Of a stretch of DNA of 64,000 nucleotides, positions 499 through 62,673 are shown one piece after another (the stretch's first letter is position 1; every line of letters starts with the position of its first letter). Source of the DNA: Mytilus edulis (Eukaryota); assembly GCF_963676685.1 (NCBI RefSeq), contig NC_092349.1:4030001-4094000 (forward strand), in the 5' to 3' direction. Below the pieces are notes generated by a model. The model had not been told where the DNA came from. It saw only the letters and a list, made by a program, of their open reading frames with translations, and made no database searches. The translations under genes were made by a program, and so were the position numbers.

Positions 499-522
499 CC
501 TTTGTAATCGAAATTTCGCCAT
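499..522 (-). CDS. Coding exon 1 of a third UBE2D-like E2 paralog; the rest lies beyond the left window edge
   Basis: ATG GCG AAA TTT CGA TTA CAA AGG|gtaag = MAKFRLQR. Same 24-nt size, phase 0 and RL motif as exon 1 of the two complete paralogs ([16 protein letters not shown]). Confidence 0.7.
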
Positions 523-1255
523 TTGTTTACATTTTCTGGGAAACAAAATTAATCATGATCCAAATCGTATCAAATTGTATCAAATCAAGATTCAGGAAAT
601 CCCCGGTTTTATTTTTAGAATAGGTATATACATTTTTCGTTTGTAAATCAAATTCAGAGTAATATTAAAATCAAAGCGGGAAAAGACCGAAACGCGATTG
701 TTATTTTCTCAGTCGGATTTTTTCCCTCTCACACAAACACATTTTTTTCAATTAACACTATAAGGTATAAGGGGAATCTGCATTCAAAAGGCAGGAGGGT
801 GTTTGTAAAGATAATAAATTAAATTAACGACAAGATAGTAAAGAATATTTTGCCCTAGAAAATGCAGGAATATTTGTGTACAACGGTTACGTTATTTTAT
901 GCATGGCAAAACAAAGTCGGACTAGAAACAGATATAAATGGGTATTTCCTTCCCTAAAAACCTACATCCCCAACTTCTCGGCCGAATATCAAGTAGTCTT
1001 TCTTCAACGAAGGTATTCTTCATGCGCAGAATACTTATTAATGATTTATTTAAAAAAGTCAATACACCCGCAAGGGGATTACATGATTACAATCGCTTTT
1101 AGTATTCTTTTTAGGTATCTACATATGTATACTGTGGTGTGTCTTTTGGTCGTTTTTCCGTTTCACTCCATGGTGTTGTAAGTTTGTCATCGGCTCATAA
1201 GTTTGAATATCCCTATGCTGTATTCTGTCTCCCTTATAAATAATGCCTACGCTAT

Positions 1256-1937
1256 AGGAAAAACAGTAGTAATAATTTCCCCAGCATTAGGTTGGCCTTT
1301 TGTGTACCCAAGGCAGATAAAGAAAGTCAACTTAGAAGCGCATTGATTGGATAACCGAAGTGAATATCAGTTTTTCAAAAGTCAATTAAACCTCATATTT
1401 ACCGAAACAAAAGACAGCAATTGTTTTATTACATATTCTGTGAGAAATGTATGTAATGGTTATTGTTTACAAAAACCAATTGTACATCAAACTTTTTTTT
1501 ATTAAAATTATGCCCGTAAAACACGTGACGTTCCGCGCGGTGAATATACCTTTTCCGAAGGTGAATATGCTTATTAATTCAAAATTCCATTCATATAGAA
1601 AAAACCTACTTAAGTTTTATCAATATGGAATAAAAAACATTATTTATCTATCTGCAGTGGGTATATTCAAAATGTAAATTTTGAAAAACCAGAGAATTAT
1701 TCGAAAAGACTTTAATAAAAACTCAAAAAGTTGGTGTAAAATGACATTGGGCATGGATAAGATAAATAAGCTCCGTTGGAAGTTGGTCATGATACTATTT
1801 GGCTTCAATTTATAAAAAAAATAACGAAAAAGTAGTAACACCACAAACCACTGTTTTGAACAGGTTTTAATTATATTTTTTGTTTTGAAAATGTTAGTAT
1901 TGTCGCCTATGGCAGAAAAAAATACTACCGTTTTCCC
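1256..1937. mobile_element. Non-autonomous DNA transposon (MITE-like); a shorter inverted copy lies at ~41438-41858
   Basis: Terminal inverted repeats ggaaaaacagtagta / tactaccgttttccc. Internal blocks recur reverse-complemented at 41438-41858. Confidence 0.6.
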
Positions 1938-58293: not shown

Positions 58294-61200
58294 ATGGCAA
58301 ACCAAGTAACATTTTATCGCATCATTCTTTTGTTCATTGCAACAGAAATGGTTGAGACTTCGAATAAAACTTGTCAGTTTGAGAGTCGATGTTTATGTAC
58401 ATTGATAAACCAAAATATGATTAAAGCTGACTGTGCTGGAAAAGGTCTTAAAACTATTCCAAAACTTCCCGTCAATTTGAAAAACATATCGCTTTCGAGT
58501 AACTTTATCTCTAGAATTGAAAAGTTGACATTTGAAGCGAGCGAATACCTTCTTTACTTGGACTTGTCAGACAATAGAATTCGTGAACTGTCAGAATTAT
58601 CTTTTCAGGGTCTCTCGAAACTGGAAACCTTAACTATCAGCAATAACCCTTTCTATCATTCCGCTATTTCGATAAATATTTTCAAGCCATTAGGATCCCT
58701 GCTGCATCTGACGCTAAAACGAAATTTCAGACAGCAGTTTTCGCTCAATGTTTCAGCGTTGGTGAGACTCAATACTTTAAAAATAGATGCTGTATCTTAT
58801 GATAATGATCAATTTGGTGTGGAATATGCCAATCTCCGTTTACTTCAAGAAGTGGACGTGTCTGGTTCCTCTGGATACTGTACACTGAAAATTCTTACAC
58901 CAGATACATTTAAATATATTCCTTATGTTGAACGGCTAGATTTGAGCGAGTGTGGTATCAATGCGATATGGATCGCAACCTTTAAAGGTTTAATTCATTT
59001 GAAATATCTAGATTTATCGTACAACAAATGCCTTAGATTTAGAGGATTTGCAAATGTGACACAGGATTTACCATCAACCTCATTGAAAATTTTGAAAATT
59101 AACAAAATTCATCAAACTTTTGATTTGAACACAATACTGACTAAGTGCGTACTCGAGCCTCTGCAAAGTACCAATATAACACAGATATACATTAACAGCA
59201 ATCGGCTACAGCTTTTCGAAAAGGGTGCAATTGATTTTTTTCCAAAAACTTTAAAAATATTGTCAATCGCTGACAACGAATTAATTTTCTACGGAAATTA
59301 CGTTGCCGACTTTATCAAATTGACCGTTCACGAGGTAAATATGTCGTACATGGGAATGTCACATTTCTTGAAGAATCGTGACGAGACTTGTGATCATACA
59401 CTCGTCACCACTTCACGTTGCAGTTACAACCCCGACGTGTACACGAAACTTGCAATCAAAAGACCCAACATGAACAATGGTACCAGCTTCTCCTTTTTTA
59501 GTTCGTTAGGTAGTGATACTGTGTTTTTTCCATACAATTTAAGGATATTTCACTTGAGAGAATGCAAGTTACGGTACTACCTTCCGGATATGACGTTTAC
59601 TGAAAATTTGTTGAGGTACGCCGATTTGTCTTCCAACACCTTTTATGACTGGCAAGGTCCACTTGGGAATCTAAATCAATTGAAATTCTTAAACTTATCA
59701 AATAACTATTGTTCCAAAGTATCTATAAGATTCTTTACAGGAATGCCAAACCTTACAACCCTTTTAGTACAAAGCAATCTATTAGGATTTGTAATACCAA
59801 GCGATAAAAACGGAAAAATACTAGCACCACTTGCCAACCTTAAAGTGCTAAATTTGGCTGACAATAGAATTCCAAGCTTGCCATCAGTCTTATTTAATGC
59901 CCAAACACAGTTACACACGTTAAATTTGAGCGGGAATATGCTTGAAACTGCTACATTCGAAATAAAACATATGACAAAACTTTCACATTTAGACATATCA
60001 AATAATAGACTTTCTGTTCTGGACACTTTTTTTACAAAACAGTTAGATCTCCTCTCATCATTTGTTCCAGGCTTGACTGTTGAATTATCGGGTAATCCCA
60101 TTAAATGTTCTTGCGAATCAATTGAGTTTATTGAGTGGTTGTCAATAACAAAAGTTCGTGTTCAAAGCTTGTTGCACCAAGATTGTCGATCTCTTCAAAT
60201 GCATTTGAATAGTTCAAGAGTCATTTACGAATATTTGAAGAAGAAATGCTCCTCATATACGACAACAATAGTCGCTGTCGGATCATGGGTCGCCATTTTT
60301 GCATTTGTCATAATTGCTGGAATTATTTATCGCTACAGATGGAAGCTTCGCTATGCTTATTATATAGTGAAAGGCAAACATCATGGTCAAATCAAACCTC
60401 TTAGAACAGACGATGATTTCCAGTACGATGCCTTCGTTTCTTACGCCGACGAAGATGAGACATTTGTTCATAGAAAGTTCCTAAAATATTTGGAGGACGA
60501 TCGAAATATAAGGTGTTGTGTGCACAAAAGAGACTTTTTGGCCGGAAATGATATCGCAACTAACATAACATGAAAACACAGAAACTTGTGTGAAAATAGA
60601 CCAACACAGGACAAACCTTTTTAAATCAAATATAGGAGTAAGACAAGGGGATAATCTCAGTCCCTGTCTCTTTAATATATATTTAAATGATTTGCCAACC
60701 TATTTTGACCAAACATGTGACCCAATCCCATTAAATACACATCCTTTAAATATTTTAATGTATGCTGATGATGTAGTTCTTTTATCATCATCAGAGCAAG
60801 GACTTCAAAATTGTGTTAACAAATTAAATAAATTTACAGTTGATTATAAAATGACAGTTAACATAAAAAAGACCAAGGTTCTTGTATTTAACAAATCAGG
60901 AAGACTTAAAAATATTAAAATATCATTAGGAAACCAGACTTTAGAATGTGTACAGAACTACACATACTTAGGTATAAATTTTTCATCGTCTGGGAGTTTC
61001 CAAATAGCAAAGAAAGAACTTTATAACAAAGGAATGAAAGCATATTTCAAATTAAGGAAGACCTTTTCAGTGGAAAGCCCAAAACCTAGTACTTTATTAC
61101 ACATCTATAACCATACAATCCGACCAATCTTGTTGTATGGATCTGAAATTTGGGGTTATATACCACATAAGAAACAAATACATTTGGATAACTTTATATC

Positions 61201-62673
61201 AAAAGAAACTGATTATCTTGTACTAGAGAAAATTCATACTAAGCTTTGTAAATTTTCACTTGGAGTTAATATAAAAACATCAAATATGGCATGTAGAGGA
61301 GAACTAGGTTCACTCCCTACACTGTATTATGTAATAATGAATATGGTAAAATATTGGATCCATCTTATGAAAGATATTGAACCTTCAAATATTATTCTAA
61401 GGGAAGCCATAAATCTATCTCATTCTATGGACAAACATAACCAGGAATCTTGGATAGGAAGCATTAAACATATATTTAAATTTCTAGACTTAGAATATCT
61501 ATTTGTTAACCAGTCAAACTTTAAACAAAACCATATTCTAAAAAAAGTAAAAACATCTTTAACTATTAAATTTAAAGAAAGCTGGTTAGCGAGTTTAGAA
61601 AGCAATTCTGGGAAGTGTACTAATTTACAATCTGGCAATAAATTAAGAACTTACAGAAAATTTAAAAATATTTTTATGTTTGAACCATATTTAAAAATGA
61701 TTTCAAAAAAAGACAGGCAAATAATCACAAGATTTAGAACTAGCTGTCATGATCTCGAAATAGAAAGAGGGAGGTATATTGGAATTAAAGCTGAAGACAG
61801 AAAGTGTAAGCTATGTAAGAACGCAGTTGAAGACGAACTACATTTTCTTTTAAAATGTCCTGTTCTAAAAGATACTAGATCTCAACATCTATCTAATTTA
61901 AATTCTAAATTCAAAAATTTTTCAAGATTACCTGATGAAATGAAATTTGTTTGGATTCTTTCATCTGAAGATTTGTTTGTTACTTCAAACTTATCTAATT
62001 TATTGCACTCCCTTTTTGAAGAACGAAAGAAAATTATAGAAAATATTGTTGTTTAAAAAAAAAAAAAAAAAAAAAAATAGAAGAAAAAATATATATTAGA
62101 TATATATATATATAAATTAAAATTGATCAGGAGTTGTCTCCCATAGACCTAGAACTATCCTAAAGATTTATGTAATTTCTCCAGGTCACAGTGGCACCCA
62201 TAACAACTATGTTTTGTCAATAACTTGGTTTATATCAGGTTAATTAGTGTAAATGTGTATTCATGTGGTTTTTTGTTTAATTGTACTTAAATCATTCTAA
62301 TCATTTTCTGTGCTTTATTTTGTAATTCATTTGATTGTATAGCTCAAATTTTGGGCACCATGATTGGTTAATAAAATTATCTTATCTAACATCCGCCATT
62401 CATAACAGCCGTAAAACGGTTGTAATATTGTCGCAACATTTCTTACAATCTGATTGGTGTCTGTTTGAATTTAATATGGCAAAAATGGAGAGTATCTATT
62501 CAAGAAGTAAAGAAAACATTATATTGCTCGTGTTCCTTGAACAAATAGCATCTAAAGATCTACCATTGAATATTTTGGAACTTATCCAATCAAAATCGTA
62601 CATAGAGTATCCAAACGACGAATACGGTGATGTCGTATTCTGGGATAAACTCAAGGAGACATTGTCAGTCTAA
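58294..62673 (+). pseudogene. TLR paralog interrupted inside the TIR domain by a LINE; otherwise open (58294-60571 and 62393-62673)
   Basis: ...GNDIATNIT | SAIHNSRKTVVILSQHFLQSDWCLFEF...FWDKLKETLSV* rejoins in frame once the insert and one TSD are removed. The insertion creates TGA at 60571-60573. Confidence 0.93.
60572..62386 (+). mobile_element. 5'-truncated non-LTR retrotransposon (LINE; clade uncertain, CR1/L2-group or RTE-X-like)
   Basis: TSD TAACAT (60566-60571 and 62387-62392). RT motifs GVRQGDNLSP, YADD and YLGI, plus C-terminal CKLC..EDELHFLLKC. Ends with AATAAA and a (TTATC)2 tail. Confidence 0.93.

Follow-up and report, generated by a model that had tools for sequence, protein, structure and literature searches.

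A tandem array of UBE2D-derived E2 genes, several without the catalytic cysteine, beside a Toll-like receptor cluster in Mytilus edulis

The window analysed here is a stretch of 64,000 nts of the Mytilus edulis genome (1.37 Gb), positions 4,030,001 to 4,094,000 of contig NC_092349.1 (G000:C6:4030001-4094000), and we also read its flanks, 200 kb to the left and 150 kb to the right. It holds one end of a tandem array of ubiquitin-conjugating enzyme (E2) genes derived from UBE2D and, facing it on the other strand, a cluster of Toll-like receptor (TLR) genes. The array has eight units (A to H), all on the minus strand, over 115 kb (C6 3.939-4.053 Mb); the window contains the last three, and the array extends about 90 kb past it. 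An earlier note, made from the letters of the window, had proposed at least three tandem minus-strand UBE2D-like genes, which are copies A and B and the first exon of copy C. Array and TLRs together have a MORC2-like gene on their left and a T-box gene on their right. In Table 1, we report the coordinates of the features in the window.

Table 1. Features of the window, in window coordinates (LRR, leucine-rich repeat; ORF, open reading frame; LINE, long interspersed nuclear element)
Feature	Position	Strand	Remarks
E2 copy C, exon 1	499..522	-	remainder left of window, to G000:C6:4022897
NF-kB-consensus match	595..604	-	73 bases upstream of copy C ATG; 1 of 12 first-exon units; putative
E2 copy B	2172..6828	-	gene model; 148 amino acids, six-exon pseudo-enzyme; 4 of 5 introns seen spliced; orthologs
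Copy B exons	6828-6805, 5739-5676, 4836-4805, 4044-3967, 3715-3607, 2311-2172	-	
DIRS-like retroelement between A and B	8990..15441	-	gag-like, reverse transcriptase (RVT_1) and probable tyrosine-recombinase ORFs; split direct repeats
E2 copy A	15974..22602	-	gene model; 148 amino acids, six exons; Pfam UQ_con; 5 of 5 introns seen spliced
Copy A exons	22602-22579, 20372-20309, 19155-19124, 18715-18638, 17462-17354, 16113-15974	-	
Spacer A-TLR1	22603..28175	.	5.6 kb; 830-base local duplication and dispersed repeats
CRE/ATF-like bZIP motif	22707..22714	.	before copy A; B is preceded by a similar one at 6862-6869
TLR1	28176..30290	+	3 stops, 4 frame changes, without TIR in this assembly
Reverse-transcriptase fragment of dispersed repeat	36493..37761	-	
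TLR2	42860..45448	+	sole intact TLR here: LRR ectodomain, transmembrane stretch, TIR; 850-862 amino acids
TLR3	47255..49832	+	recent TLR2 copy, 97% DNA identity, synonymous divergence (dS) 0.02-0.03; three stops, one frame change
Isolated TIR 3'-end fragment	53374..53510	+	
TLR4	58294..62673	+	81% DNA identity to TLR2; TIR split at about 60570-62387 by a poly(A)-bearing LINE-type element

Six of the units (A, B, C, E, F and G) have complete open frames, and the indels among these six models are all in frame. Unit D is fragmentary, consisting of exon 1 and exon 6, and unit H was used to exon 5 only, as its exon 6 abuts an assembly gap and has an apparent frame change; spare first exons are also present within the array. 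The units share the six-exon plan of the housekeeping UBE2D gene (contig C9, 35.95 Mb), and every intron of A and B has GT-AG borders. Pfam UQ_con is matched in the six copies scanned, the sequence and fold matches in PDB are headed by Ubc4/5-type E2s, and the model of copy E has a confident UbcH5-like fold (pLDDT 89.8, TM 0.91 to UbcH5b); the ESM Atlas gave generic E2 clusters only. Records P0001 and P0006 could be taken for a true three-domain E2, which we reject: they are fused models, and each gene has its own ATG and stop here. In copy C, a piece of about 65 bases that spans the junction of the intron with exon 4 is repeated in tandem, in about a dozen copies, upstream of the acceptor in use (L020:5897-6800); in another diverged E2 gene (G000:C9:21.20 Mb), the beginning of exon 4 is tandemly repeated in a similar way.

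Few eukaryotic proteins are as strongly conserved as UBE2D, and the array takes its active site apart in several ways. Copy A keeps it in full (HPN motif, Cys85, Asp87 and Asp117). Copy B, which is 62% identical to A and retains helix 1, the Ser-Pro-Ala loop and Ser22, has Phe in place of Cys85 here and Tyr in other assemblies and species. An assembly error as the source of this Phe is rejected, since RNA contigs of two runs agree with the genome over the exon of the Cys site with zero differences. Copy C also has Phe for Cys85, together with an altered HPN, a six-residue deletion in the gate loop, Ala96Asp and Phe62Trp; Ala96Asp breaks RING binding in UbcH5. Amongst the named Mytilus species, Cys85 is missing in B in three of three (Phe or Tyr), in C in four of four (Phe, Phe, Phe, Ser) and in F in three of three (Ser). 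Copy H, the sister of F, is without Asp87 and keeps Cys85, and a sister sequence of the C orthologs, described below, also keeps its Cys, so that the Cys has been lost at least three times and the proposal that C never had one is rejected. Without Cys85, a ubiquitin thioester is impossible at that position in B, C and F. The earlier note had thus rightly described two complete paralogs differing at many residues, one active and one dead, as far as the complete active site of A goes; the dead lineages are three, not one. Across the 12 lineages compared, Arg5, Glu9, Ser22, Tyr60, Pro61 and Pro95 are unchanged in all, Asp87 is kept in one and Asp117 in five. Compared with UBE2D/UbcH5/Ubc4-5, then, the array has the same fold, exon plan, length, Ser22, Arg5, Pro61 and Pro95, and A has the whole active site, but there is a one-residue insertion before the Cys, the genes are tandem and sample-restricted, and most copies have lost Cys85, Asp87 or Asp117.

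A different change marks the clade of E and G, which includes four proteins of other species. Here Cys85 is kept and Asp87 is lost; Asp117 is replaced by Cys in all six proteins, five of which have a C-x2-H with a new His88 and one, G, a C-x2-C. Neither Cys117 nor the C-x2-H/C occurs in any of the 57 background E2s parsed, and the Asp117Cys/His88 change of the clade is one evolutionary event. A further array member, P0063, comes from another M. edulis assembly and is missing from this genome; it has Tyr at Cys85 and Cys at Asp117. In UBCH5A, D117A blocks lysine modification (PMC7615817), and UBE2L3/UbcH7, with no acidic residue at the Asp117 equivalent, has no lysine reactivity (PMC8899012); loss of Asp117 therefore predicts a poor discharge to lysine in the E/G clade. 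The likeness to UBE2L3 goes no further, as that enzyme belongs to another family and has His at the position where the E/G clade has Cys plus the new His88. One could go on to read the locus as a UBE2D rebuilt into a toolkit, with Cys-less decoys and a metal- or redox-sensing Cys85/His88/Cys117 site, inherited and induced together with the TLRs so as to tune innate ubiquitin signalling or trap ubiquitin ligases (E3s) of pathogens; we regard this as a long shot.

The array descends from one UBE2D duplicate. The identity to the housekeeping UBE2D is 69% for A, 56% for B and 47-59% for the copies other than A. All array members form one clade apart from the housekeeping UBE2D and a second paralog (support 98/99), and they remain monophyletic (100/99) in a tree including UBE2D of other animals; the long-branch clade that the earlier note proposed is there. 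Orthologs are found in M. edulis, M. galloprovincialis, M. trossulus, M. californianus and M. coruscus, under near-consecutive accessions. The protein of copy A is identical in M. edulis, M. galloprovincialis and M. trossulus and 97% identical in M. californianus and M. coruscus, so the description of the array as fast-diverging fails for A. Some M. edulis records (P0007, P0053, P0054, P0065, P0135) are identical to the gene models here and, as they possibly come from the same assembly, we do not take them as independent. A word-based search with pieces of the last exon found 81 proteins, 17 from named Mytilus species and none named from another bivalve genus, which, given the kind of search, is weak evidence for absence outside Mytilus. 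The copy sets differ among species and assemblies, and the differences between assemblies suggest presence/absence variation. We found no description of the array in the literature searched, a search that most subscription papers fall outside.

Several other UBE2D genes of this genome deserve mention. The housekeeping gene (G000:C9:35951206-35964603) ends in three alternative last exons arranged in tandem; each would yield its own C-terminal half, with an overall identity of 93-95%. A second six-exon paralog (G000:C9:14.52 Mb; L037:3153-9716) is 72% identical to the housekeeping copy and has a full active site. An intronless, intact retrocopy (G000:C1:81.378 Mb; L036:4085-4528) is 89% identical to the housekeeping protein; a UBE2D retrocopy is also recorded in M. 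galloprovincialis, and another match lies on contig C1170.

The array duplications have dS values of 0.3-0.9. The pairwise ratio of nonsynonymous to synonymous rates (omega, YN00) is mostly 0.3-0.6 among copies and rises to about 1 for pairs with E. In a branch model over 148 codons, omega is 0.23 for A, 0.40 for B, 0.35 for C, 0.67 for E, 0.34 for F and 0.40 for G, on branches that span time before and after the loss of Cys. An omega of 1 is rejected for A (twice the log-likelihood difference, 2dL, of 8.7), B (8.4), C (11.8) and G (6.6), and it is not rejected for F (2.7) or E (0.9). In 4,000 simulations, a frame evolving without selection was still open after 0.23 substitutions per site in 0.25% of cases. 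Copy C is open without Cys in four species whose sequences are 79-93% identical, over a tree of about 0.48 substitutions per site, and it is the clearest case of a frame kept after Cys loss. These results bear on ordinary decay, that is, on A (perhaps with H) being the only functional copy and the Cys-less copies being transcribed young pseudogenes or near-neutral passengers. The fragment D, the spare first exons, the variation of copy sets between species, the results for F and E and a level of B 10-30 times lower than that of A all fit decay; the long survival of C in four species, the rejections of omega=1 on B, C and G and the rarity of surviving neutral frames do not, and we judge decay unlikely.

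Four RNA runs (X1, X2, X21 and X24) were mapped to positions 1-8900 and 15600-31400 of the window, with TLR2-4 outside. The runs were selected via copy B, and contig depth is a poor gauge of expression level. Copy A has contig depths of 613-918 in X1 and 230 in X2, and in the raw runs it has 0-2 reads per joint in X21 (8.7 million raw reads) and 2-14 in X24 (12.7 million raw reads). Copy B has a depth of 25 in X1, where four of its five introns are spliced, and of 30 in X2, with two of five; X21 and X24 have no listed joint reads of B. The coding bins of TLR1 are at 0-0.24 (X1), 0.4-1.4 (X2), 0 (X21) and 0 (X24). A and B are thus real spliced transcripts that vary widely and together between samples, unmatched by TLR1.

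The joint presence of A and B in the same two runs, and their absence or low level in the same other two, is what one would also expect if the dead copies were cofactors that heterodimerise with A to set the chain type, as Mms2/Uev1 do with Ubc13. B, C and F do resemble the ubiquitin E2 variants (UEVs; MMS2/UEV1 and the TSG101 UEV) in having an E2 fold without catalytic Cys that is kept under selection, and Ser22 is kept in all 12 lineages. Mms2/Uev1 use an N-terminal extension, however, which the mussel dead copies do not have, and these copies are young, UBE2D-derived and arisen at least three times in one array. They do not descend from the ancient UEV lineages: they are nested among Cys-bearing array copies and are 50-60% identical to UBE2D, in a tree built without UEV sequences. 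UEV-type partners are not known to be required by UBE2D-type E2s. Predictions of an A+B complex scored 0.00 in both runs, performed without alignments, and are no evidence either way. We hold such a cofactor role to be very improbable.

The sample-restricted transcripts raise the question of the tissue. E2 duplicates with testis-enriched expression have been reported in the mouse (Ube2d2b; PMC6735960) and in Drosophila (eight of them; PMC6154878). Like these, the mussel copies are lineage-restricted duplicates with restricted expression; unlike these, they are intron-bearing and tandem and several are without Cys, and the testis comes in by analogy only. By that analogy, the male gonad and an alternative amongst haemocytes, stress or another tissue would be about equally probable. 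First-exon units carry bZIP-type motifs 34-105 bases upstream in 6 of 12 cases and AP-1 motifs in 3 of 12. The chance expectation is 0.098 bZIP motifs per 200 bases; the array promoters are duplicates, so the occurrences are not independent. bZIP-type motifs fit a spermatid or a stress programme equally. A putative NF-kB-type site precedes one of the 12 units, copy C.

On the other side of the window, the four TLRs group with one another in a local clade (100), and the dS between TLR2 and TLR4 is 0.34-0.50. The earlier note had seen an expanding cluster; the local clade agrees with expansion, and three of the four copies are broken in this assembly. An ortholog of TLR1 is intact (852 amino acids, with TIR) in M. 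coruscus and in a second M. edulis annotation, compared by eye over the first 150 residues as given in part of the supplement of PMC10279657, and we reject the reading that the TLR facing the array is dead in the genus. TLR1 here, with its many substitutions, its stops and its lost TIR, looks like an old null allele of a gene intact in the other M. edulis annotation. That supplement counts 280 TLRs in M. edulis, and the paper places many M. edulis and M. coruscus TLRs in conserved positions. The cluster has the hallmarks of other Mytilus tandem clusters, namely single-exon LRR-transmembrane-TIR genes that stand in tandem, form a local clade, vary in number and include broken members. At more than 800 amino acids they would be V-type by the size rule of PMC10279657. 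The TLRs of the window are ordinary except for their E2 neighbour. An exact look-up of TLR2 returned no record. Between 60 and 115 kb to the right of the window lie a B-box plus beta-propeller ORF (L026:6853-8538) and a DZIP3-like HEPN ORF (L032:2829-3572). As for mobile elements, the element between A and B, which from its layout we take to be DIRS-like, is apparently intact; its three long ORFs overlap, and its split repeats are nearly identical.

The ATG of A (22602) and the ATG of TLR1 (28176) are 5,574 bases apart in divergent orientation, as the earlier note had estimated (about 5.6 kb). A splice acceptor precedes the ATG of TLR1, so its transcription starts somewhere upstream. The linkage is kept in relatives at the level of the genus. 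In the PMC10279657 supplement, CAC5412711 and CAC5412712 (M. coruscus) and CAG2194656 and CAG2194658 (M. edulis) are listed as TLRs, and in both species the second TLR, the TLR1 ortholog, has the accession immediately preceding that of copy A (CAC5412713 and CAG2194659), an order of accessions that places the linkage in M. coruscus and in the second M. edulis annotation. For M. galloprovincialis, M. trossulus and M. californianus, the supplement either showed no TLR neighbours or gave no means of checking them. The local TLR clade and the TLR dS indicate that both arrays grew in place over similar times.

The same note had gone further, to a co-regulated and co-diversifying module of immune receptors and ubiquitin enzymes. 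In such a module, the E2 array would serve or dampen the signalling of the neighbouring TLRs, or decoy the E3 ligases of pathogens, and shared regulation would keep the linkage. In favour of a module, consecutive accessions give the head-to-head order TLR, TLR1, A, C, H in M. coruscus as well as in the second M. edulis annotation, each time with TLR1 intact; the similar ages of the two arrays, the bZIP and AP-1 motifs and the one NF-kB-type site point the same way. So does the rarity of the adjacency: with at least 72 TIR clusters counted from the 150 TIR hits scored (of 641 candidates), the expected number of E2 loci, out of 30, within 23 kb of a cluster is about 0.07. On the other side, TLR1, the one TLR covered by the four runs, is near zero in all of them, including the two in which A is abundant (depth 230-918), a set too small to refute co-regulation, and three of the four TLRs are broken here while A is invariant. 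Nor does the pairing recur: the other 29 E2 loci all keep a distance of more than 90 kb from the scored TIR hits (the next nearest is at 91 kb), and the contig with the closest TLR relative has no E2 match. The pairing was also singled out with hindsight from at least 144 cluster flanks, 5.6 kb with repeats separates the two ATGs, and the main text of PMC10279657, in the part accessible to us, never mentions ubiquitin. The co-regulated immune module is unsupported, and we deem it distinctly unlikely. The linkage is old and likely incidental; in a TLR-rich genome, and selected post hoc, it amounts to a mild coincidence.

The explanation we prefer, and to which we give somewhat better than even chances, is a birth-and-death E2 family with a conserved active copy and selected pseudo-enzymes that probably act by binding, with tissue-restricted expression and a passive linkage to the TLRs. 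A Mytilus-wide tandem family has grown from one UBE2D duplicate, with one conserved copy keeping its whole active site and the catalytic site of others dismantled. The dismantled copies are probably non-conjugating binding partners in a restricted tissue. B would compete with A at RING ligases or tune it there, C (with Ala96Asp and Phe62Trp) would bind via another surface, and the E/G clade, without Asp87 and with Asp117Cys, would continue to be charged but discharge poorly to lysine. The E2 and TLR arrays would have grown side by side in a duplication-prone interval between the MORC2-like and T-box genes, without shared function.

A number of observations weigh against this explanation. In a HMMER scan with C, one of 149 further representatives matched the array best, and this sequence, sister to the four C orthologs (94/88), keeps Cys and HPN. 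Phe62 is kept in 7 of 12 lineages and Ala96 in 6 of 12, and the conservation of the E3-face set (0.64 against a mean of 0.56, with the cleft at 0.48 and the backside at 0.49) is only modestly above average. Neutrality is not rejected for F or E, and the branch omegas average over time before and after Cys loss. B differs at 10 of 148 residues among three close species and A at none, which makes recent relaxation possible and fits relaxation as well as positive selection. The binding role of the dead copies is itself predicted, and the gonad comes from the E2 duplicates of other animals. As to the passive linkage, the adjacency is expected 0.02-0.07 times among the 30 E2 loci under a uniform model (a lower bound), M. 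coruscus shares it and has the TLR intact, the arrays are of similar age, and copy C carries the NF-kB-type site.

The main interest of the locus is its series of pseudo-E2s, and the TLR adjacency by itself is of modest interest. Known E2 pseudo-enzymes are mostly ancient. One array with three losses of Cys and one rewiring of Asp117, beside active sisters, is a natural series on how pseudo-E2s arise and act. Expression in the gonad would make these copies candidates for the steps in mussel sperm and in mitochondrial inheritance that involve ubiquitin; an immune role would make them a new way of tuning TLR signalling.

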